Source: Acidobacteriota bacterium (GTDB lineage: Bacteria > Acidobacteriota > Thermoanaerobaculia > Multivoradales > J023). From it: a stretch of DNA of 64,000 nt. The DNA lies in NCBI GenBank assembly GCA_029263395.1, contig JAJCXO010000206.1:690-64689 (forward strand). Reading direction: 5' to 3'. Made by a program: the position numbers and the translations under genes. The notes beneath the pieces are model-generated. The model was not told where the DNA came from. It searched no databases and was given only the letters and a program-made list of their open reading frames with translations. Shown piece by piece: positions 24,021 through 55,337 of the stretch (its first letter is position 1; each line of letters begins with the position of its first letter).

Positions 24021-24374
24021 CTAATATTCGTAAATCACAAGGTAGCCGATCCGCTCCACACAATCTACGTGAGACTGGCTGTCGAAGTAGACGAATAGCG
24101 AGGCACGTGACTTTCGGTAGTAGACGTGGGCTGTTTCATAGTCTGGGCTGCGACAACGATGAACAGGCGAAGCTAGGCTCGATCGGTCAGTTTCTACGAG
24201 AGTCGCTGGACCGAGGATGGCCTCTACCTCGCGAGCACTCATCCCTACACGTATACTGTCTAACTTCTTCTCGTCCTGAGAATAGAGAAAAGAACGAAAC
24301 ATAAAAATTAGCACTCCCAGAGAGAAAAAGATCGCGCAACCAACAGCTCGCCATCTAGCGGCTAAGTTAGCCAT
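24021..24374 (-). CDS. Putative Rhs immunity protein (TM anchor plus BamE/SmpA-like domain)
   Basis: ATG 24374 overlaps the Rhs stop (ATGGCTAA); SIRVGMSAREVEAILGP motif; AT-richer than flanks. Confidence 0.65.
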   Translation of the reverse strand: MANLAARWRAVGCAIFFSLGVLIFMFRSFLYSQDEKKLDSIRVGMSAREVEAILGPATLVETDRSSLASPVHRCRSPDYETAHVYYRKSRASLFVYFDSQSHVDCVERIGYLVIYEY

Positions 24375-27300
24375 CACCGGAGCGACCCATGAATAAAGGA
24401 CTGGGATGTGTAAGATCGACAAGAAAAGATCTGAACCGAAGTCCCGAAAGACCGATTTGGTATAGTGCCTTGCAGTCTTTTTCACAGACAGATTTTCTTC
24501 GGTATCTTGCTCGCTCAAGGCCAGCTGCGGAGCCAGCTAGATTTTGAAGATACCTCGTGGAAGTATTCACATGCTTATACTCTTCATTTCGGATTTTTTC
24601 TGGAGAGTAACCAGTGCCCACTGGGTAGTAGACATCAAACCCTGCTTTGATTGTCACCCTGGCCCGATATCTCTCGCCTGAGCACTCGCATTTGCAATCA
24701 ACTGAGAAAAGGACTTTGGTGCAGCCTAGGACGAAGGTCCCGCCAGCCTTGCAGAAGTTGTTCCTCATATCGTCGAAGGATACTGGGTGATCTATTGCGG
24801 GCTTTACGAACAGCGCGACAAGCCCAAGTGGATCCGTTCCGTTCAACGGCCTGTTGAAGACATATGAGTAGTGAGCTTCCCGAAGTGGGTTATAAATAGG
24901 GTCCGGTCTCGAGAATCTTCCATTGGAAGGCTGATACCACCGATGGACGTTATAGACGACCTCCCCGCCCGCTCCCGACTCTGCCCAAGTGGCATCATTC
25001 CATTGACCTGGGAATCGTAAAAATACCCCGGCCGCCGACGCACCAGCGTAGTCGGCACCGAACGGTTCGAAACCGCCTTCCCAGACGACTGTCCCCGACG
25101 TATCCATCGCCAATGCTGGTGTCCCGAGGTGATCGGTTGTCAGGTAGAGCAAAGTGCCACCGGTGTCGAATTGGGCAACCGGACGGCCCGCGAAGTACAG
25201 CACGTAACTCGCCTCGCCGGGACGGAAGATACGATGCAGTCGGCCGTCCGAGTCGTAGGTTGGCTCGCTGAAGTCTAGGCTGGTGGTCGGCGGACACGGG
25301 CCGGCACTACCCCAGATGCTGGTGTCACCACTCTCGAAGCCGTCGCAGAAGATGCCGCTGGCGGCATCGGGGACGATGCCGGTCGACCGACGCAGGAAAC
25401 CGCGGCCATCGTAAAGCAGGTCGCTGCTGGCACTGGCGACGGTACGCTCTTGACGCTCCATGCGGCTGGCGGCGTCGTAGTCGCGATCAATGATGTTGCC
25501 CGCAACATCGAGTTGGGTCTGGTTGCCGGCGGCATCGTAGCTGAAGGTGTGCGTGCCACCGGCACCCAGTGTGATCGAACCGAGGCGAGCGGAGTTGCCC
25601 ATCGCGGCGTTGGCGACGTAGGTGTAGGTGTCGACCACGGTGTCGCGGGTTTCGGTGAGTCGGTTGCCGATTTGATCGTAGGTCCAAGCCAGATCTCCCC
25701 ATGGGCCATCTCCCTGGGTCAGGTAGTACTGGACGTCTTGGTAGGCGTATGCTCGATCGTTCGCCATGTTGAGAGCGTCGCTAATGCCGGTGATATTGCC
25801 GACGGCATCGGTGGCGTACTGCCAGTCGAACAGTGCGCCAGCCTGAATGGACGCGGGGAAATACCGGGTGTCATAATTTCTGGTTTCGATGACCCCGTTA
25901 CCGAGGGCCAGTGAAGCCAGCGGCCCAGCCGGCTCGTAGCTCGACGCGGTAACAATTCCCAGCTCCGGCAGCCCTGGACGTTGTAACGCCATCGTGGCTT
26001 GGCGGTCGACCTCATCATAGGTGGCCGTGGTACTCACACCACCAGGATACCCGATGGTGGTGCGGTTACTGTTCTTGTCATAGCCGTAACTCAGATCGCC
26101 ATCTTGCAGCATACGGCCGAACCGATCATAGCCATAGTCGACGCTGTGACCATCCCGATGGATGCGGGTCAGGCGGCCGAGAGAGAACGCAACGGCGGCA
26201 TCGTCGTAGGTATAGATCACGTCGAGCGCCGTGCCAGGATAGTCCTGTAGCGTTACCCGATCGAGCGCGTCGATGGTACGCGTCATGACGATGCCGCGAG
26301 CGTCTGTGCGGGAGGTTGCCTCGCCGTGTTCATTGTAGGTCTGGGTGGTGATGCCGGAGACCTCGGACGCTTCCATCGTCATCAGGTCACGATCGCTGGT
26401 GACGTAGGTAGTGACGCCACCTTCGCCGTCGGTGACCTGGGCGAGATGGTCTTGGATATCGTACCCGTAGCTCACCGTGGTGGTGCCGCCACCCTCACCG
26501 CCCCACGGCTGACTCACTGCGCTGAGCCGATCGAGCGCATCATAGGTGTATACCGTAGACGCTGGGTTGATCTGACCATTGCTCGGGTGATTTGCGTCCC
26601 AGATACGTTCGATGTTGCCCTCGCAATCGTGAGCATACTCCGTGATCGCCTCGTCGCTGTTGAACCCTTGGGTGAGCTTGGCAAGCTGGCAACGATTGTC
26701 GAATTGGAACGCGGTTTGAGATCGCTTCTCCCACTCCGTGCCCGTCCAGCGTTCTTGCGCCTCGAGCACCCGGTTGCCGGCTCCATCCAGGGTGTAGACG
26801 ACACGCTCGGTGTGGTTCGTTGCCTGATCGTCGGCCTTGCGCTCGATCGACACCAAACGACCCACGGCATCGTAGCCGTACTCGATGACGTTGCCTTCCG
26901 GCAGCACAGTCTGGAAGAGGTCACCGAAGACGTTGTAGCGCCGCTCGGTGACGAGATCATCGGCCGGGGTCGACCCACGCTGAATAATGAAACGAATACG
27001 ATCGAGCGCGTCGAATTGGGTCTCCGTGACGACACCGTTGGGATCGGTCACGGAGGTTCGACGGTTGAACGGATCGTTGCCGAAGAGGGTGGCACCGATC
27101 AACGGGTCTGTTCGAGACAACGGCACCAGGAAACCGTTGCCGCGAGTGACGTCGTAGGCAAACGTCGTTTGATCATTCGTGCCGTAGCCTGGCGGGTCGA
27201 CTGAGGTTATCTGGCCACCGGTGTTGTAAACGGACACCGTCTCATAGCTGAACGCGGCCCCGGCTTCGAATCCGTCGAACATCTGGCTGGTTCGGTTGCC

Positions 27301-29124
27301 AAAAGCATCGTAACCATGGGTGGTGGTTTTGACGTTGGGGAAGCCGGCCGTCGACGGCTGTTCTATGGTGGCGACGAAGGCTGGAAAGGTGGGGTTGTAG
27401 GTCCAGATAGTTTCCCGTTCGAGCGTTGAGCCGAAGGCTTCGATGCGACTCGTCAATCGACCGTTGCCATCGTAGGCAAACTTGGTGACGTGGCCACGAC
27501 CATCGGTCTCTTGCGTCACGCGATAGGGGTTGACCGAATCTTCGTAGGCAAGCTGACTGTTGGGACCGACACCGCACGCCGGACAGTCGCCGTTGACTTG
27601 CACAACTCTCGGTTTGCGCTCCACCACATCACGGCCGTCCCAGATCGTCGTCGAAACGGTACCGAGAGGATCGGTGATGGTGGTGACGGTAGGTAACACC
27701 GGGTTGTCGAAGACGAAGGACCACTGGTCAACGCCGTCTTCGAACGTCGCCGCGCCGCGCCACAGTTTGACGACATTCCCCTCGGCGTCGTACTCCCAGG
27801 CGGCGGTGATGCGTTCACTCGTGCCATCGGTGCCGATGAGGGTGGCTCGGGTCATGTAGCCAGCGTTGGCGGGGTCGTCATATAGATACTCGATGGCAGT
27901 GCCATCGGGGCGGTCGAGGCGGGTCAAATCGCCGCTGGTCCAGGTGTAGGACCAAACGCGAGTGGTGGTGTCATCGACGCCAACCTCGGTGATCGACGCG
28001 AGCATGCCGCCGACGTCGTAGCCGAAGTCCTCGCGACGACCATCGGGGAAGCTCACCGAAGTGAGTAGCTGGCCGGTGTACGAAGCGACGGTGGTATTGC
28101 CGGTGCGATCAGCTCGTTGCAGCCAGAAACCCATGGTGTCGAACGTGTCAACGGTGCCGTCTAGATCCGTCAACGTCCAGCCACTGGCGGTGGGCGCTAG
28201 GCTACGGTATTCGTCACCCGGAAAGACCAGCTCATAGATGTCGTCCCCGTCATCGTCAATGAAGGTGCGGTAGACAGCGGTGTCGGTCACCAGATACACG
28301 CGACTGGCATGAGGGGCGGGATCGTCGTCTTCGAATAGACGCATGGCATAACTGTGGGACCAGAAGCGCCCCAACCCTGGAGCGGGACTGCCTGGTAGGT
28401 CATCGCGACCCACGCTGCCAGCTTTGTAGCGCAAGAACGCACCAGGACCGGTGCCGATGCCGCCGCCATGGCCTCCGCCACCAGCCGCCGAGGCACCACC
28501 GCCGCCAGCGCCGCTGCCGGTGGTACGACAGGCCAGGCAGTTCTCGTCACAGTCGTCCTCAGGTGGCCTCGGGCACACTGCCGGGTCAATGGCACCATCG
28601 GTCAGATCCACAAACATCGAACGATTCTGTTCGCAACCCCCGACCCCGTCGCAAACCGTGATGTGGAGCTCGTAAACTTGGCCACCACCGCTGTCGCCAC
28701 AAGTGAAGGATCGCTCGATCCAGGTCTCACCCTCATCCACTTGGATACGTGCTCCAAAGTTGCCACACGCGCCGACAAAGTTGTTATCGGCATCTTCCCA
28801 CAGCAGCTTCGCCGGGCTGTCGATGAAGCCGATCCCGGTACTATTGTTGTGGTTGCCCGGGAACTCCATCGGCACCACCGCCCGCACCGTGCACGTTGCC
28901 TCCGTCGGATCGCAGCCTGGTGGCAGGATACGGTAGTCGACGGCGGACACCGTCGGCGGGTGGCACCAAAACAGATTCTGACAGTTACGGGACGCGTTGA
29001 TCGTCGCACCACCGGCCGCGAACCCGATCGCCGGGCTGCCGACACAAACCTGCGCTTGTAGAGGGGACGCGGTGAGCATCCACGTTCCCAGCAACATCCA
29101 AGACCCTCGAAGAAACCAACGCAT
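24367..29124 (-). CDS. Rhs/YD-repeat polymorphic toxin with Sec signal peptide
   Basis: GGAGG RBS before ATG 29124, signal peptide, many YD repeats, DHLGTP, LRFPGQW, YNVHRWY..GRFSRPDP, PLNGTDPLGL core end. Confidence 0.93.
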   Translation of the reverse strand: MRWFLRGSWMLLGTWMLTASPLQAQVCVGSPAIGFAAGGATINASRNCQNLFWCHPPTVSAVDYRILPPGCDPTEATCTVRAVVPMEFPGNHNNSTGIGFIDSPAKLLWEDADNNFVGACGNFGARIQVDEGETWIERSFTCGDSGGGQVYELHITVCDGVGGCEQNRSMFVDLTDGAIDPAVCPRPPEDDCDENCLACRTTGSGAGGGGASAAGGGGHGGGIGTGPGAFLRYKAGSVGRDDLPGSPAPGLGRFWSHSYAMRLFEDDDPAPHASRVYLVTDTAVYRTFIDDDGDDIYELVFPGDEYRSLAPTASGWTLTDLDGTVDTFDTMGFWLQRADRTGNTTVASYTGQLLTSVSFPDGRREDFGYDVGGMLASITEVGVDDTTTRVWSYTWTSGDLTRLDRPDGTAIEYLYDDPANAGYMTRATLIGTDGTSERITAAWEYDAEGNVVKLWRGAATFEDGVDQWSFVFDNPVLPTVTTITDPLGTVSTTIWDGRDVVERKPRVVQVNGDCPACGVGPNSQLAYEDSVNPYRVTQETDGRGHVTKFAYDGNGRLTSRIEAFGSTLERETIWTYNPTFPAFVATIEQPSTAGFPNVKTTTHGYDAFGNRTSQMFDGFEAGAAFSYETVSVYNTGGQITSVDPPGYGTNDQTTFAYDVTRGNGFLVPLSRTDPLIGATLFGNDPFNRRTSVTDPNGVVTETQFDALDRIRFIIQRGSTPADDLVTERRYNVFGDLFQTVLPEGNVIEYGYDAVGRLVSIERKADDQATNHTERVVYTLDGAGNRVLEAQERWTGTEWEKRSQTAFQFDNRCQLAKLTQGFNSDEAITEYAHDCEGNIERIWDANHPSNGQINPASTVYTYDALDRLSAVSQPWGGEGGGTTTVSYGYDIQDHLAQVTDGEGGVTTYVTSDRDLMTMEASEVSGITTQTYNEHGEATSRTDARGIVMTRTIDALDRVTLQDYPGTALDVIYTYDDAAVAFSLGRLTRIHRDGHSVDYGYDRFGRMLQDGDLSYGYDKNSNRTTIGYPGGVSTTATYDEVDRQATMALQRPGLPELGIVTASSYEPAGPLASLALGNGVIETRNYDTRYFPASIQAGALFDWQYATDAVGNITGISDALNMANDRAYAYQDVQYYLTQGDGPWGDLAWTYDQIGNRLTETRDTVVDTYTYVANAAMGNSARLGSITLGAGGTHTFSYDAAGNQTQLDVAGNIIDRDYDAASRMERQERTVASASSDLLYDGRGFLRRSTGIVPDAASGIFCDGFESGDTSIWGSAGPCPPTTSLDFSEPTYDSDGRLHRIFRPGEASYVLYFAGRPVAQFDTGGTLLYLTTDHLGTPALAMDTSGTVVWEGGFEPFGADYAGASAAGVFLRFPGQWNDATWAESGAGGEVVYNVHRWYQPSNGRFSRPDPIYNPLREAHYSYVFNRPLNGTDPLGLVALFVKPAIDHPVSFDDMRNNFCKAGGTFVLGCTKVLFSVDCKCECSGERYRARVTIKAGFDVYYPVGTGYSPEKIRNEEYKHVNTSTRYLQNLAGSAAGLERARYRRKSVCEKDCKALYQIGLSGLRFRSFLVDLTHPSPLFMGRSGDG

Positions 29125-29440
29125 AGCAACCTCCACATATATGGTAACCCTAAACGGCCCCCGCAGCCAGCTAGCGCCCATCGGGCTCCGACTGGTTGGG
29201 CTCACTCAGACCTGGGCGCAGTTGTCCCTGTGCAACCCTGGTTGAAAACCCCTATCCCGACCGCACTTGCGGCCTACCCGCCATCAAGCCAGCAAAGTGG
29301 CCCCCCGGCGAATGCGCCGAGTTGCCCAGAGAAGACGATGAACCCCTCGCTGCTTAGCGGCCAAGCGTTTAGCGGTTGAGAGAGCTTTCTCCGGCCTTTC
29401 GAGGACCAACGGGAGTTGACTGCCGCCATCAACTTCACGG

Positions 29441-30452: not shown

Positions 30453-32114
30453 TCAGGTTTGCATCACCCCGGTCCGAAACGGCGGGATGTCAGGATTGGT
30501 CGCAGCGCAGGCCAAGGACCTGGACAGCACACTGCGCGTTTTGGCGGGATCGATGATGGCATCAACCCACAGCCGAGCGGCAGCAAACCTTGGATCCATG
30601 GCCGCCGCGTAGCGCGCTTGAATACGCTCGAGCAACTCGGCCTTCTCTTCCTCGGACACCGCGTCGCCACGGTTCTTGAGCTGGATCGAAAGCAATGTCT
30701 TGGACGCCTGGGCGCCACCCATGACCGAGATCGCAGCCGACGGCCAGGCGTAGACGAACCGGGCGCCGTAGGCTTTGCCGCACATCGCGTAGTTGCCGGC
30801 CCCATAAGAATTGCCGGTGAAGACGGTGATCTTGGGCACCACCGAGTTGGATACCGCGTTGACCATTTTGGCGCCGTTTTTGATGATGCCTCGGCGCTCG
30901 GCTCGGCTGCCGACCATGAAACCCGTCACGTCCTGCAAGAAGATCAACGGGATCTTCTTCTGATTGCACAACTCGACGAATCGTGCCCCTTTGTCTGCCG
31001 AGTCCGGGTAGATCACACCGCCGATTTGCATCTCTTGATCGCGGGGCTCTGTGCCGGTCCTGCGTCGCACAACCGACCGTTGATTGGCAACAATACCGAC
31101 CGCCCAGCCGTCGAGCCAGCCGGTACCGCAGATCAACGATTGGCCGTAGGTCTCCTTGAACTCGTCGAACTCACTGTTGTCGAGCAGGCGGGCCAAGACG
31201 TTGCGAACGTCGTACGGCTTGGCACGATCCACCGGCATCACGCCATGGAGCTCGTCTTCTGGGTAGCGCGGTGGGGCCGGCTCCCGGCGGGCGAACGGCG
31301 CCTGTTCGGCCGCCGCCAACTGAGCAAACTGAGAACGGATCTTGGCCAGGCAGGTTGCATCGTCTGGATGGCGATGATCCACCACACCCGAGATATCGGC
31401 TTGCACCACGGCGCCGCCGAGTTCCTGGTTGTCGATCTGTTCACCAATCGCCGCTTTCACCAGATGGGAACCGGCAAGGAAAATGGAGCCTGTGCCTTCC
31501 ACGATGTGCGACTCGTCGCTCATGATCGGCAAGTAGGCACCGCCGGCAACACACGAGCCCATGATCGCCGCCATCTGAAAGACCCCCTCGGCGGATAGCC
31601 GAGCGTTGTTGTAGAACACGCGCCCAAAATGATCCCGGTCGGCAAAGATCTCCTCTTGCATGGGCAAGAAGACGCCGGCCGAATCCACCAGGTAGACGAT
31701 CGGCAAGCGATTCTCGAGTGCCATCTCTTGCGCTCGCAGGATCTTCTTACAAGTGATCGGAAACCATGCCCCGGCTTTGACCGTCGCATCGTTGGCAACC
31801 ACCAAAACCTCGCGGCCATGAATCTTGCCGGTACCGGTCACCACTCCGCCGGCCGGTGCGCCACCATGCTCGGCATACATCCCGTGGCCGACCCACAATC
31901 CCCACTCTAAGAAGCTGCCGGGATCGCACAGTGTTTCGACCCGTTCACGGGCCAACATCTTGCCCTTATTGCGTTGCTTTTCTTGGCGTTTCGGACCGCC
32001 ACCGGCACGGATTGTTTGTTCCGCCTCTGCCAGGTGCTCGAGCTCGCCTCGCCAATGTTCTAGCCGGCGATCAAAGCTCTCGTTGCGTCGCAGCTGATCT
32101 TCGAGAATGGTCAC
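30453..32114 (-). CDS. Acyl-CoA carboxylase carboxyltransferase subunit (methylcrotonyl-CoA carboxylase beta-like)
   Basis: ANDATVKAG, LVDSAGVFLP, GSCVAGGAY, QDVTGFMVG, SYGAGNYAMCG. Confidence 0.92.
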   Translation of the reverse strand: MTILEDQLRRNESFDRRLEHWRGELEHLAEAEQTIRAGGGPKRQEKQRNKGKMLARERVETLCDPGSFLEWGLWVGHGMYAEHGGAPAGGVVTGTGKIHGREVLVVANDATVKAGAWFPITCKKILRAQEMALENRLPIVYLVDSAGVFLPMQEEIFADRDHFGRVFYNNARLSAEGVFQMAAIMGSCVAGGAYLPIMSDESHIVEGTGSIFLAGSHLVKAAIGEQIDNQELGGAVVQADISGVVDHRHPDDATCLAKIRSQFAQLAAAEQAPFARREPAPPRYPEDELHGVMPVDRAKPYDVRNVLARLLDNSEFDEFKETYGQSLICGTGWLDGWAVGIVANQRSVVRRRTGTEPRDQEMQIGGVIYPDSADKGARFVELCNQKKIPLIFLQDVTGFMVGSRAERRGIIKNGAKMVNAVSNSVVPKITVFTGNSYGAGNYAMCGKAYGARFVYAWPSAAISVMGGAQASKTLLSIQLKNRGDAVSEEEKAELLERIQARYAAAMDPRFAAARLWVDAIIDPAKTRSVLSRSLACAATNPDIPPFRTGVMQT

Positions 32115-32216
32115 GTCTCACTCCTTCTGGGGCATCTCTTCTTGGATACGGCTCGACGCTTCCTGCCGATCCCTCCAATTACAAGGTTACAGAGGTTTTG
32201 CCTGCGCCAGCCTCAT

Positions 32217-32633
32217 CTACGGTTCCTGCCAGTCCTCGAGAGCGAGGTCAACGATACGGCTGAATTCTCGGGTATTGTGTGTGACCAGAGTAGCCTTATG
32301 CCGCACAGCAATCGCGGCAATGATCAAGTCATTCGGCCCGATTGGCTCTCCCGCTGCGGCCAAATTGGCCCGTACCTGCCCATAAGTATCAACGGCCTCG
32401 TCGTCAAATGGTAGAACAAGGAATTGTTCGAAGAAGGAGCCAAGAAGTGCGAGGTTACTTTCCACCCTTGCACTCCGATATGCCCCATAAAGGAGTTCTG
32501 CCTTGACAATCTGGCAAAGGGCCACCCTCTGTCTTGGCTGGGTCGAAAGTTTGCGAGCCACCCCAGAGATGCTGTCGTTCAAGACAGCGATACATGCATT
32601 CGTGTCGAGCAAGTAGGGAGACTGAATCGTCAT
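32217..32633 (-). CDS. vapC: VapC PIN-domain toxin
   Basis: YLLDTNAC, AELLYGA, IGPNDLIIAAIA, LVTHNTREFSR. Confidence 0.93.
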   Translation of the reverse strand: MTIQSPYLLDTNACIAVLNDSISGVARKLSTQPRQRVALCQIVKAELLYGAYRSARVESNLALLGSFFEQFLVLPFDDEAVDTYGQVRANLAAAGEPIGPNDLIIAAIAVRHKATLVTHNTREFSRIVDLALEDWQEP

Positions 32634-32788
32634 ACCTCACTCCTTCTGAAACGATCTTCGTGCTACCAGTAGTCGGTACCTGCGACAGGCTCCGAGGTGC
32701 ATAGTGCTTGCGTCGAGCGGATGCTAGCATCCTGCTCCCTGAAGATCCGAATCATTGCCTTCGCAACGGTGAGCGCTTTTCTGGGCAA
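32624..32788. repeat. Decayed duplicate of the carboxylase start/RBS (32105-32129) and of the moaD promoter and 5' end (33167-33254)
   Basis: 32624-32648 matches 32105-32129 at 21/25 nt; 32700-32788 matches 33167-33254 at about 80% with one indel removing the ATG. Confidence 0.85.
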
Positions 32789-32872
32789 GGGTCGATCCCT
32801 GATGACTGCAGCTGGGTGCGACTAGTGGACCGATTTAGCTATACTCGCTAGGATGATTCGCCGAGGAGCACT

Positions 32873-33124
32873 ATGAACAGTATTCAGTTGAAGACCAGAG
32901 TCGGGGCAGACGGGGTCCTCAAACTGGAGGTCCCCGTAGAAGTCACGGAGACAGATCTTGATGTCCTCGTCGTCTTTCAGCCGCTGACTCAGAGACCGAC
33001 AGCCGCCCCTGACAAGCTCGGCTGGCCGACTGGTTTCTTCGAAAGAGTCGCCGGGGGATGGCAGGGCGAGCCCTTGGAGCGAGCTTCCCAAGGCGTCTTC
33101 GAGAACCGCACCAAGCTGAGATAA
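32873..33124 (+). CDS. Probable VapB-type antitoxin
   Basis: GAGGAG RBS; MNSIQLKTRVGADGVLKLEVP...GWPTGFFERVAGGWQGEPLER resembles small proteins usually encoded upstream of PIN toxins. Confidence 0.65.
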   Translation: MNSIQLKTRVGADGVLKLEVPVEVTETDLDVLVVFQPLTQRPTAAPDKLGWPTGFFERVAGGWQGEPLERASQGVFENRTKLR

Positions 33125-33204
33125 CCTCGATCCTCGCGGACGGGCTTGTCTGTGAGTCCTGGATGACATGGTGCCTGTGCCAAGTGGATGCTAGCATCCT
33201 GCTC

Positions 33205-33903
33205 ATGAACATCCGAATCATTGCGTTTGCGACGGCGAGCGACATTCTGGGCAAAGAGCCCGTCGAGATTGTGATACCCGACGCCAGCCGCTTGAATGAT
33301 CTGCAGCGTGAGTTGGTGACGCGGTACCCTGAGCTCGACAAATTGTGGCCGCGGCTAGCGGTAGCGGTCGACGGTGAGCTGGTGCGCGACGACCGGGAGC
33401 TCCCCGACGGTTGCGAGATTGCGTTGCTGCCCCCGGTCTCAGGCGGGTCCGGTGGAACCGGCGGCCGCACCGGCTTGACAGACGATGTGATCGACATTGC
33501 TGCGGTTGAACACTCAGTCACCGATCCAAGCTGCGGTGCCGTGCTGCTGTTCCTGGGCAACGTCCGTGATCACCATGCCGGTCGCCAGGTGGCACGCCTG
33601 GCTTACAGCGCCTACCGGCTGATGGCCGCCAAGACCCTGGCACGGATCGCTGCCGAGCTCGAGGCTGAAAGTGCCGAGCGGGGCGTGCGGATGAACGTCG
33701 CGATCGTTCATCGCCTGGGTGAAGTCCCGGTCGGCGAAGCAAGCGTCGTCATCGCCGTGTCTTCACCCCATCGCGACGCCGCCTACCAGACCAGTCGCGA
33801 AGCCCTCGAACGGCTCAAACGCGAAGTGCCGATCTGGAAACGGGAGCACTACGCTGACGGCGAAACTGTCTGGCGAGAAGAAGAGTCGTTGGCCGCAAGT
33901 TGA
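33205..33903 (+). CDS. moaE: Fused molybdopterin synthase MoaD-MoaE (MoaX-like)
   Basis: Ubiquitin-like MoaD ending LLPPVSGG, then MoaE (CGAVLLFLGNVR, HRLGEV, SSPHR, LKREVPIWKRE) in one frame. Confidence 0.9.
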   Translation: MNIRIIAFATASDILGKEPVEIVIPDASRLNDLQRELVTRYPELDKLWPRLAVAVDGELVRDDRELPDGCEIALLPPVSGGSGGTGGRTGLTDDVIDIAAVEHSVTDPSCGAVLLFLGNVRDHHAGRQVARLAYSAYRLMAAKTLARIAAELEAESAERGVRMNVAIVHRLGEVPVGEASVVIAVSSPHRDAAYQTSREALERLKREVPIWKREHYADGETVWREEESLAAS

Positions 33904-36021: not shown

Positions 36022-37287
36022 TCAACCTCTTTCATCCAGGTTTTGTTCCAACAGAGCTCGCTCAGCTTGCAACCACTTCACAAGCTCCTCCTCGGTCGGC
36101 AGTTCCAACATGTATCGCGAGACAAAAAGAGAATCGGCCAACCCCGCGGTGGCATAGCGGACAACTTCGCTATCTTTGCCTGCACACAGCAAGATACCAA
36201 CCGGCGGGTTCTCGTCGGACCGGGTGGCGTGTTCAGCCAAGTAGTTGAGGTAGAAACTCATCTGCCCGGCGTGAGCGGGCTCGAAGTCCCCAACCTTGAG
36301 GTCAATGGCGACAAGCGAGCGCAGCCCACGATGGAAGAAAAGCAAATCGAGGTGGTGGTGGACATTGCCGACCGTGACGCGGAATTGCCGATCCACAAAA
36401 CAGAAATCGCGCCCAAGCTCTAAAAGAAACTCCTGAAGGTGATCTAGGAGAGCCTGTTCCAGATCCGCCTCACCGAAGCCGGCGGATGGCTTCAAACCCA
36501 AGAATTCGAGCACGTAAGGATCACGGACCTCAGTACTCGGTGTTGTGACCAGTCCACCGTTTCGGACGAGAGCTAAGACCGCATCACGGTCTTTCGATAG
36601 ACCAACTCGTTCATAGAGGAGACTGTTACGTTGGCGCTGGAACTCACGGACGGCCCAACCTTCCTTTAAGCAATGAAGTTCGTAGAAAGATCGTTTCAGG
36701 AGATCGTCAATACGGGAGAGCTCCAAGAGATGAGAAAATGAGAGTGTAGAGAAAAGTCGTTCGACCCATTCCGAATCCTGCCACTCAAGCTTCTTGGCTT
36801 TCTTGGCGCGCTGGGCCACAGAGGGGAACAATACTGCCTCGGTCGCTGACGATCCGCTATCAAGAATAGAAACGCCAGGCGTCTGGCGTTTCGACTCTTC
36901 TGGCCTGGAGGACGCCGACACCGGTCGCCTCAAGAGACCGAGACCAAAAACGCCAGACGCCTGGCGTTTTGGGAAATCAGAACCGAACCTGGCGGGAAGT
37001 GCATGCCGAATCTCGAGGCCAGGCCATGTCAAGGTCACCTGGCGGCAGTTCTTCAAACTGCTCACACCCAGTCCTTTGTACCCTCGCACGTCTAGCTCGG
37101 CGGCGAGCCTTGGGAAGAGGCGATCACCGTATGCAGCACGATCTTCACCCGTTTGTTCGTACTCGACAAGATAGGCACCAATGAGCCAATTACGCACCGA
37201 GAGCAGTCGTGCGACCGATCGCCCGGCCGCCTCCTGCAACGAATCGGTGATGGCACCTAGGTCAAAGAGAAGGGTCTCGAAGTTCAT
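36022..37287 (-). CDS. DUF1016/YhcG family PD-(D/E)xK nuclease-domain protein
   Basis: NWLIGAYLVEYEQ.G.DRA.YG, LSFSH, RDPYVLEFLGL, FLLELG.DFCFVDRQ, DLLFFHR, IDLK, GQMSFYLNY. Confidence 0.9.
   Translation of the reverse strand: MNFETLLFDLGAITDSLQEAAGRSVARLLSVRNWLIGAYLVEYEQTGEDRAAYGDRLFPRLAAELDVRGYKGLGVSSLKNCRQVTLTWPGLEIRHALPARFGSDFPKRQASGVFGLGLLRRPVSASSRPEESKRQTPGVSILDSGSSATEAVLFPSVAQRAKKAKKLEWQDSEWVERLFSTLSFSHLLELSRIDDLLKRSFYELHCLKEGWAVREFQRQRNSLLYERVGLSKDRDAVLALVRNGGLVTTPSTEVRDPYVLEFLGLKPSAGFGEADLEQALLDHLQEFLLELGRDFCFVDRQFRVTVGNVHHHLDLLFFHRGLRSLVAIDLKVGDFEPAHAGQMSFYLNYLAEHATRSDENPPVGILLCAGKDSEVVRYATAGLADSLFVSRYMLELPTEEELVKWLQAERALLEQNLDERG
36869..36970. repeat. Two intragenic 24-bp palindromes
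   Basis: GAAACGCCAG-GCGT-CTGGCGTTTC (36869-36892) and AAAACGCCAG-ACGC-CTGGCGTTTT (36947-36970). Confidence 0.9.
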
Positions 37288-37373
37288 GGGATGTCTCATC
37301 CGTCCAACAGAATCTTCGAGACGCTGCCTCACGTCGAAACTGACATAGCACTTTCCTGGGCTCGAGATTCAAG

Positions 37374-54357: not shown

Positions 54358-54693
54358 ATGCCTAGTGACGCCCAATCGATACATCCCACACTACCTGGTG
54401 ATCTGCGGCCCCTCTTTTGGGACTACGATTTTCAAGATCTGTGCTGGGACGATGATCGAGCCCTGATCATCCGTCGAGTTTTGACCTCGGGCCCTTGGGA
54501 CAGCGTGCAATGGCTGCGTTCCAGAGTGAATGATGACACGCTGGGACGCTGGATCATCGACCACCAGGGCCGCGGGTTGAGTCCACAGCAACTTCGTTTT
54601 TGGCAATTGATCCTCGATCTACCGACCGAGCAGGTTGATGGGTGGCTGGCTGACCGGCAAACCGATCCCTGGCATCACCGACAGGCCTCATGA
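54358..54693 (+). CDS. DUF6922-like antitoxin partner
   Basis: PLFWDYD, IIRRVL..G.W..V.WL, LRFWQLIL; overlaps the next gene (ATGA). Confidence 0.7.
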   Translation: MPSDAQSIHPTLPGDLRPLFWDYDFQDLCWDDDRALIIRRVLTSGPWDSVQWLRSRVNDDTLGRWIIDHQGRGLSPQQLRFWQLILDLPTEQVDGWLADRQTDPWHHRQAS

Positions 54694-55337
54694 CGTTTCA
54701 CTCCGAGGTCCTAACGACACCTCAGATCCACGCTCTTCACGCGATGGGACCGGCCATGACAACCGGTCACTTTTATCTTGCTGGAGGCACCGCCCTGGCC
54801 ATCATCCTCGGGCACCGCCTGTCGGTTGACCTCGACTGGTTCACCCGTAAACGATTTGCAGATCCGATGCGTTTAGCCGCCGAGCTGCGAGATGACGGAA
54901 TCCAGCTAAAGACAACACGGGTGGAACGCGGCACTCTGCATGGCCATATCGACGATGTGCGGGTCAGTCTGCTCGAATATCGCTATCCATTGCTAGCTCC
55001 CGTCATCGTATGGAGCGAGCATCAATGTGCACTCGTCTCGCTCGACGATATCGCTTGCATGAAGCTGTCTGCGATCAGTCAACGCGGAGCCAGGAAAGAC
55101 TTCGTCGACCTCTACGCACTCGTCCAACGGCACCGACCGCTGGATGAGCTTCTGAAGCTGTACCAAAAGAAATACGACACGACAGATATCGGACATGTTC
55201 TAGTGTCCTTAGCCTACTTTGACGACGCCGAGCGAGAGCGGATGCCAAAGATGCTTTGGGATGTGAGCTGGCAGGATCTCAAGACTCAGATCCAGAGGTG
55301 GGTGCTGGACCTAGCGCTGCCCCCTGTGTCTGGGTAG
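54690..55337 (+). CDS. AbiEii/AbiGii family nucleotidyltransferase toxin
   Basis: FYLAGGTALA..LGHRLSVDLDWF, IACMKLSAI.QRG.RKDFVDLY. Confidence 0.88.
   Translation: MTFHSEVLTTPQIHALHAMGPAMTTGHFYLAGGTALAIILGHRLSVDLDWFTRKRFADPMRLAAELRDDGIQLKTTRVERGTLHGHIDDVRVSLLEYRYPLLAPVIVWSEHQCALVSLDDIACMKLSAISQRGARKDFVDLYALVQRHRPLDELLKLYQKKYDTTDIGHVLVSLAYFDDAERERMPKMLWDVSWQDLKTQIQRWVLDLALPPVSG

Follow-up and report, generated by a model that had tools for sequence, protein, structure and literature searches.

A vapC toxin gene and its predicted antitoxin lie back to back over a duplicated host promoter in an Acidobacteriota genome and may descend from an operon that was inserted whole and later split

Toxin–antitoxin (TA) systems of type II have been described as autoregulated operons (PMC4803016). 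Their logic is usually explained through the shared operon, where production of the antitoxin comes first and the antitoxin represses toxin and antitoxin genes alike. How, then, did a vapC toxin gene and a small gene that appears to encode its antitoxin come to stand back to back in a 64,000-nucleotide (nt) stretch of the genome of an Acidobacteriota bacterium (GenBank assembly GCA_029263395.1, contig JAJCXO010000206.1, positions 690 to 64,689 of the forward strand; hereafter the window)? The answer that we favor, with a probability of about 0.58, is that an ordinary antitoxin–vapC operon entered in one piece and was afterwards broken up by local rearrangement, which would have left vapC and the antitoxin gene back to back over a duplicated host promoter.

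The locus consists of an acyl-CoA carboxyltransferase gene (minus strand; hereafter the carboxylase), a PIN-domain vapC (minus), an open reading frame (ORF) of 83 amino acids (aa) (plus) and a moaD-moaE fusion (plus), an order and orientation that a first-pass annotation, made from the sequence itself, had already given correctly. Its statement that no integrase or transposase lies nearby also agrees with our scan: none of these families was found in 52 window ORFs (including 49 of the 72 ORFs of at least 170 aa, the other 23 mostly overlapping scanned ORFs in other frames), and the 22 matches to PF00589 genome-wide include none on the contig that carries vapC and the antitoxin. In the list below, positions are those of the window, RBS stands for ribosome-binding site, G004 is a genome of the same genus, L036 is a locus with a related copy of the operon at an unrelated site, and X3 is a run that yielded contigs of a second strain.

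30453..32114, minus: host acyl-CoA carboxyltransferase (beta-type subunit), 553 aa; Pfam PF01039, E 1e-143; 93% identity to the G004 orthologue
32105..32176, minus: outer (working) copy of the carboxylase start, with its RBS and the promoter side of the host spacer; firm up to 32129, tracking G004 to about 32161, weak up to 32176
32177..32216, minus: trailer 3′ of vapC; its first 12 or so nt resemble the post-vapC sequence of the operon-type copy in L036
32217..32633, minus: vapC, an intact PIN toxin of 138 aa; PF01850, E 1e-18
32624..32648, minus: apparently captured carboxylase RBS and first codons, now the start of vapC; 21/25 identity to 32105–32129
32624..32810, no strand: central copy of the entire host divergent region, including both gene starts; alignable over its whole length with the empty site of G004
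32719..32732, no strand: extended −10 box, a palindrome, in the moaD promoter copy; TG-n-TAGCAT on either strand; present in the G004 empty site
32739..32810, plus: decaying moaD copy, codons 1 to about 27; ATG lost and 13 nt deleted, both retained in strain X3
32828..32872, plus: promoter-like region belonging to the operon itself; TATACT at 32840–32845, RBS GAGGAG at 32863–32868
32873..33124, plus: predicted antitoxin, 83 aa; co-oriented vapC downstream in relatives, and a complex model with VapC
33121..33145, plus: probable scar left by the first vapC; the start overlap, now mutated, is fused to the last vapC codons
33167..33285, plus: moaD promoter with 5′ end, outer (working) copy, defined by the repeat alignment
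33205..33903, plus: host moaD-moaE fusion, 232 aa; PF02597 and PF02391

Probable traces of the original operon are found on both sides of the antitoxin gene. Upstream, the TATACT box and RBS are conserved before the antitoxin homologue at the unrelated site in L036 (score 49, reached by 0 of 2000 shuffles), and a contig from a further run, X4, matches the window from 32828 onward and is unrelated to it upstream of that point. Downstream, the comparison is with intact operons, in which close antitoxins end in LR or LQ, the seven closest VapCs start MTYLLDTN or MSYLLDTN, and the hexamer TGACCT occupies the stop/start overlap in two of the eight intact antitoxin–vapC junctions printed. The window antitoxin ends in AGATAACCT, which equals this junction overlap with the ATG changed, and in the bases that follow 18 of 22 columns match vapC nt 386–406, that is, the end of vapC from TGACCT on; the hexamer occurs singly in vapC, at nt 384. 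A match of this quality was equalled by 30 of 5000 shuffles and by 22 of 5000 random 56-mers of the genome (p about 0.005). The segment is thus a probable scar of a vapC gene deleted between two TGACCT hexamers, and if this reading of the scar is right, two vapC copies were once present. Loci elsewhere at which vapC has eroded behind this antitoxin number three of 32. The surviving, inverted vapC is joined from codon 3 onward to the copied carboxylase RBS and first codons, so that the first four VapC residues stand in place of the MT start found in its closest relatives. Because the antitoxin keeps its own promoter box and RBS and a remnant of the vapC overlap, toxin and antitoxin would have arrived as an operon and parted later.

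These traces bear directly on the first-pass annotation, which had each gene inserted separately: toxin and antitoxin would have entered singly, as promoterless genes, behind the two host promoters by promoter capture without an integrase. Such a history would account for the capture of the carboxylase RBS and start by vapC and for the duplication of both host starts, and it is contradicted by the TATACT box, RBS, mutated vapC overlap and vapC 3′ remnant of the antitoxin. It is further opposed by the habit of the antitoxin family of traveling as an operon, with no second divergent case in 32 loci, and by the 12 other inserts at the same site (described below), none of which has duplicated host starts or these genes. 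We regard gene-by-gene promoter capture as largely refuted and give it very little credence.

Is the 83-aa protein in fact the partner of this VapC? The first-pass annotation had called it a probable antitoxin, and two lines of evidence now make it very probably the cognate antitoxin. First, among 32 loci of the antitoxin family, drawn from 300 order-level and 401 phylum-level genomes and including kin that are not independent, a full, co-oriented vapC lies directly downstream in 24, a vapC remnant in three and none in five, and divergent arrangements number zero; moreover, five of the seven best VapC homologues and the top antitoxin homologues lie on contigs of matching length. Second, a model of the complex of VapC with the 83-aa protein reached an interface score (ipSAE, interaction prediction score from aligned errors) of 0.78, compared with 0.02 for the best of three controls; the mark applied to this score was attained in 116 of 157 solved complexes, compared with 2 of 215 mismatched pairs. 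Runs of the model agree in at least 87% of contacts, with a partner pLDDT (predicted local distance difference test) of at least 76, and the modeled interface takes in VapC residues 46–47 and 99–102, which hold two active-site acids, so the antitoxin is predicted to bind VapC across its active site. By alignment to a solved tRNA(fMet) VapC the acidic active-site residues D10, E46 and D102 are all retained, and VapC scores 137.7 bits against NF047863, whose cut-off is 140. The 83-aa protein itself has no match in Pfam, NCBIfam or PDB; its neighbors in the Atlas are unnamed clusters, most often cyanobacterial, and the nearest named ones, DUF2281 (0.85) and AF2212-like (0.80), are leads only. As a monomer it models with a pLDDT of 51, too poor for a fold search.

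Several observations on this family stand apart from the pairing itself. It is widespread beside vapC (loci L041–L061 and L116–L123) and yet is without a Pfam, NCBIfam or PDB entry. Many order-level antitoxin hits match the region of the C-terminal W...GGW motif only, and this module may join different N-terminal domains. At L036:2467-2831, which appears to be one locus with L040 (G011:C2), the operon is eroded, an internal deletion fusing the antitoxin end to the last third of vapC. In a phylum-level genome, several direct repeats of 37–67 bp surround another operon copy (L117:892-1067 with 1754-2837).

Misassembly would have made the whole question moot, and the first-pass annotation had named it as a way in which its own account could fail. 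A contig from run X1 covers 31500–33602 with 0 differences; X1 is possibly the source sample and hence not independent. Contigs from run X3, which belongs to a different study, cover 32307–32696 and 32680–33525 with variants of their own and bridge the vapC/center and center/antitoxin/moaD junctions. Because the X1 and X3 contigs cover these junctions, the divergent layout is real and is common to at least two strains. An assembly artefact produced by the repeats could draw on the facts that the genome is in 291 contigs, that no long read was seen and that no single listed piece covers the whole 2.5-kb stretch; the repeats, however, are merely 82–84% alike, and together with the identical X1 contig and the junction-crossing X3 contigs this leaves the artefact with a negligible chance. 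One X3 contig offers a side observation: compared with the window, about 26 of 355 bases differ in moaD (33171–33525) and 3 of 252 in the antitoxin (32873–33124), a contrast that could reflect fast moaD evolution or a later exchange of the TA block between strains.

The two genes flank a second copy of host DNA. On the left, 32105–32129 and 32624–32648 match at 21 of 25 positions, just as the first-pass annotation had counted, and vapC uses the copied RBS and start; this repeat probably extends to about 60–70 bp, with identity past the first 25 nt of just 17/40. On the right, where that annotation had seen a copy of the moaD promoter and some 16 codons at about 80%, 32700–32788 and 33167–33254 are 82% identical across 89 columns (E 1.8e-16 against the whole genome, in which no further significant copy was found), and the repeat reaches farther, to about moaD codon 27, the central copy carrying a 13-nt deletion. 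Local alignment scores of 40 (left) and 112 (right) compare with maxima of 35 and 36 over 1000 shuffles. The right repeat includes a 14-nt palindrome that occurs exactly twice in the 10.7-Mb genome, once per copy. Since it is also present in the G004 empty site, and since TAGCAT or TACCAT stands just 5′ of moaD in most of the 10 relatives printed, the palindrome is host sequence, the extended −10 box of moaD. Its presence in G004 led us to reject it as a cassette feature, whether a recombination site or a TA operator.

The relatives also show what the site looks like when it is empty. In 15 of 40 the carboxylase and moaD are divergent and less than 250 bp apart, including the same-genus G004 (100 bp) and G002 (113 bp), so that the uninterrupted arrangement presupposed at first pass, with the carboxylase directly divergent from moaD, does exist. 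Another 12 have 0.7–8 kb of differing cargo between the two genes (L098–L109), and in the remaining 13 the host genes are unlinked, rearranged or interrupted by contig ends. No matches to vapC or the 83-aa protein and no duplicated gene starts were found in 18 relative regions, including all 12 with cargo. The gap between carboxylase and moaD is, on these comparisons, a variable insertion slot, and the vapC/antitoxin cargo is seen only in this lineage among those compared.

Along its full length the 100-bp empty spacer of G004 can be aligned with the central segment, and each of the outer copies aligns with one half of it. The center is accordingly a second copy of the whole ancestral divergent region, in keeping with the duplicated host divergent promoter first proposed. 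In both halves the outer copy is closer to G004, with 23/42 versus 15/40 for the left spacer and 43/51 versus 35/51 for moaD codons 1–17. This is expected of copies still in use. In strain X3 the central moaD copy keeps its ATG, agrees with the working copy at four more bases and is 13 nucleotides longer; to judge from this comparison it is a local duplicate undergoing decay.

From these pieces the shortest history, and the likeliest in our view, would run from operon insertion through an inverted vapC copy to loss of the first copy. In a first step, which resembles insertion with long target duplication, the operon would have gone into the moaD start together with its own promoter, duplicating about 110 bp of the moaD promoter and 5′ end. 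In a second, another copy of vapC with its trailer would have gone inverted into the carboxylase start, probably via two template switches during replication, duplicating the carboxylase RBS and promoter side and fusing vapC from codon 3 onward to the carboxylase start. In a third, moderately supported step, the vapC behind the antitoxin would have been deleted between the two TGACCT hexamers. The trailer (32177..32216) resembles L036 with a score of 25, equalled in 13 of 2000 shuffles. A single inversion from an inverted-insert precursor was also considered and rejected: it predicted a carboxylase 5′ remnant behind the antitoxin, and 1823 of 2000 shuffles scored as well as the best candidate there.

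Is insertion with flanking duplications common for TA genes in this genome? We compared 49 TA genes (25 of 26 PIN, one at a contig edge being left out, 9 of 9 ParE, 5 Uma2, 1 BrnT, 2 PemK and 7 of 20 Phd, most other Phd matches belonging to pairs already counted) with 500 random loci; flanking direct repeats at a score of at least 36 were found at 5 of the former and 12 of the latter. At G000:C282:70846-71947 an intact phd-vapC operon is flanked by 150-bp direct repeats, 96% identical, that copy the last 46 or so codons (the 3′ end) of what by sequence reading is a sigma-54-type regulator. We take this locus, from its sequence, to be a recent TA insertion with long target duplication. Promoter capture gene by gene as a general process was rejected here: among the five repeat-flanked TA genes, a duplicated host gene end is clear at one, and at none was a host start seen duplicated in the present manner. 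A search for other TA genes flanked by decayed host gene starts, as suggested at first pass, gave no such example among the 49 tested, and no second divergent TA pair was found in this genome. Four more TA-type loci have flanking direct repeats of about 35–130 bp (G000:C257:20782-22045, C221:156015-157384, C285:22656-23999 and C283:33307-34418). A self-comparison of the genome gave 528 nearby direct-repeat pairs, 167 once intragenic ones were removed.

Both genes are likely to have been under selection since the split. Compared with strain X3, which has the same junctions, 8 of 11 changes in vapC and 3 of 3 in the antitoxin are synonymous (11 of 14 together), against an expected synonymous share of 0.24 (p = 0.001 for vapC and 0.015 for the antitoxin). 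Run X4 adds two further synonymous antitoxin changes. The central moaD copy differs from that of X3 by five substitutions and the 13-nt indel in about 52 nt.

How might the two genes now be expressed? Since the ancestral operon gave vapC no separate promoter, its transcription would have to begin in the center. The palindromic moaD box reads the same leftward, so RNA could start about 80 nt before vapC, and the box is a candidate bidirectional promoter. Bidirectional bacterial promoters are described as having starts 7–25 bp apart, with a commonest spacing of 18 bp (PMC10268837); here the −10 is likewise symmetrical, and starts set 7 nt past each box would be 23 bp apart, within that range and unlike the commonest spacing. 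The moaD-moaE gene is probably leaderless, with 7 nt between its −10 box and ATG. A scan for the sigma-70 consensus that requires a −35 match found no site. The antitoxin would be transcribed from its own promoter and perhaps also from the moaD promoter copy, and VapC would be translated from the captured RBS, on an RNA that is read leftward and probably continues into the carboxylase gene. Neither the minus strand between vapC and the carboxylase nor the stretch from the antitoxin to moaD showed a terminator-like site, so each of the two genes may share a transcript with its host neighbor. Separate regulation of toxin and antitoxin is plausible. A further proposal, that the toxin has been freed from antitoxin autoregulation, sits on a host metabolic transcript from the moaD −10 palindrome or the carboxylase promoter copy and is kept in this state by selection in at least two strains, we put forward only tentatively and think unlikely; if it were true, host promoters would set the toxin-to-antitoxin ratio.

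A number of observations weigh against the history of an operon inserted whole and split in place. The scar depends on one 22-nt match, and no match was found between it and the end of the related L036 vapC (4154 of 5000 shuffles were as good). Six bases where vapC is fused, and some 30 in the left trailer, are without a matching source. Insertion with long duplication is, by the counts above, a minority route in this genome. The substitution counts are small, come from contigs with a depth of 3–5 and ignore transition bias, and in run X4 a 151-nt contig that crosses no junction has four vapC differences, three of them non-synonymous. The aligned carboxylase −10 box is, by eye, without its last T in both window copies, which makes the vapC promoter uncertain. 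Finally, no feature separates a vapC copy inverted in situ from one brought by a second incoming operon, and run X4 has other, partly matching copies of the vapC and antitoxin genes.

These last two points lead to the strongest competitor, in which two full operons were inserted independently, one at each host gene start and each with a long target duplication, the left one then losing its antitoxin and the right one its toxin. Both inserts are co-oriented with the interrupted host gene and duplicate its promoter side, the site demonstrably takes differing cargo (12 of 40 relatives), and the related copies in X4 would fit. A 7-mer, ATTCAGT, common to the vapC start and antitoxin codons 3–6 could be added, although it was spotted post hoc and four of its seven bases are already accounted for by the carboxylase start. 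This account requires four events, including two arrivals 100 bp apart of a rare operon whose antitoxin is single-copy in this genome and absent from four same-genus genomes, and we consider it improbable.

Rather less probable still is an account in which the block of vapC, promoter copy and antitoxin had already formed at another place, a related donor for instance, and came into the spacer as a unit at one point, splitting it. The end of the outer-left copy and the start of the outer-right copy meet at nearly the same TCC of the center (about 32693), which fits such a single nested insertion and is a further point against a split in place, and the greater closeness of the outer copies to G004 agrees with it. 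The abutting ends would also be required if both back-to-back promoters were kept, however; the central moaD copy of X3 is nearer the working copy (ATG and 13 nt kept), as for a decaying local duplicate; and a one-step entry merely shifts the origin of the split to a donor. Insertion of one operon followed by its splitting in place remains our preferred reading.

The individual steps of that reading have known counterparts. Nobusato et al. 2000 is cited on insertion with long target duplication. For restriction-modification genes such insertion is described by a direct repeat of more than 30 bp, an empty site in a relative, an insert of less than 20 kb and no mobility gene (PMC2853133). Here, a direct repeat longer than 30 bp is present on the moaD side (89 columns, 82%) while the carboxylase side is firm for 25 bp only; single-copy empty sites (G004, G002), inserts of about 0.5 kb and lack of a mobility gene agree with that description. 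The present case is unlike it in that the cargo is a TA pair, that the starts of both neighbors are duplicated and that the cargo was apparently rearranged later.

Tandem inversion duplications with deleted junctions were reportedly described by Kugelberg et al. 2010. In a tandem inversion duplication the inverted copy has direct copies on either side, and the palindromic junctions are deleted. The left half of the present locus would follow from an inverted copy bordered by direct copies of neighboring sequence, and the geometry fits if the scar is vapC; unlike that process, the event here would be much smaller, and neither a symmetrical precursor nor a junction palindrome was found. An attP-type integrative element with a replacement gene end has a linked site-specific recombinase and near-identical att cores, features that this locus does not show: the contig has no integrase, and the repeats are long, unequal and 82–84% alike.

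In a study of how chromosomal TA loci are acquired and eroded in Photorhabdus, toxin inactivation is described as usually preceding antitoxin loss (PMC13617665). Insertion into a high-turnover slot and, on our reading, the loss of one toxin copy with the antitoxin retained are features in common with that study; the relocated toxin copy here is, in contrast, intact and apparently selected. The main text of that paper, searched by keyword, yielded no divergent or inverted pair, and keyword searches of PMC4963859, PMC2654758 and PMC8763031 turned up nothing pertinent apart from references. A literature search over titles and the beginnings of abstracts, with most subscription papers and supplements outside its scope, likewise gave no type II pair split into divergent genes.

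Compared with vapBC systems of the tRNA(fMet)-type VapC (NF047863; PDB 3tnd, 9h6a), the pair is alike in its intact PIN toxin, in a small partner predicted to lie over the active site and in the antitoxin-then-toxin operon of its relatives (24 of 32 loci). It is unlike them in that the genes here are divergent on separate predicted transcripts, with the toxin started from a host RBS, and in that the antitoxin family lacks a database match. Because the genes are divergent and the toxin uses a host RBS, coupling at the level of the operon and autoregulation cannot work in the usual way. The locus is a lineage-specific variant of a vapBC-type system made by known processes.

A cognate pair that persists on two divergent transcripts, its toxin showing signs of selection, would be a ready-made test of whether operon coupling is needed. 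TA finders that depend on operons would label such a pair an orphan toxin and a hypothetical protein. Moreover, the locus appears to record, nearly base by base, the entry of a TA system without a mobile element and the handover of a gene to host expression signals. These implications concern one lineage and steps that are known processes, and the account draws on sequence and models.

Elsewhere in the window, 24367–29205 encodes a 1612-aa Rhs-repeat protein followed by a small gene (24021–24518) with a weak BamE-domain match, possibly a toxin/immunity pair. A YhcG/DUF1016 nuclease gene (36022–37332) and an AbiEii-family nucleotidyltransferase gene (54690–55337) lie amid housekeeping genes and are likely further insertions.

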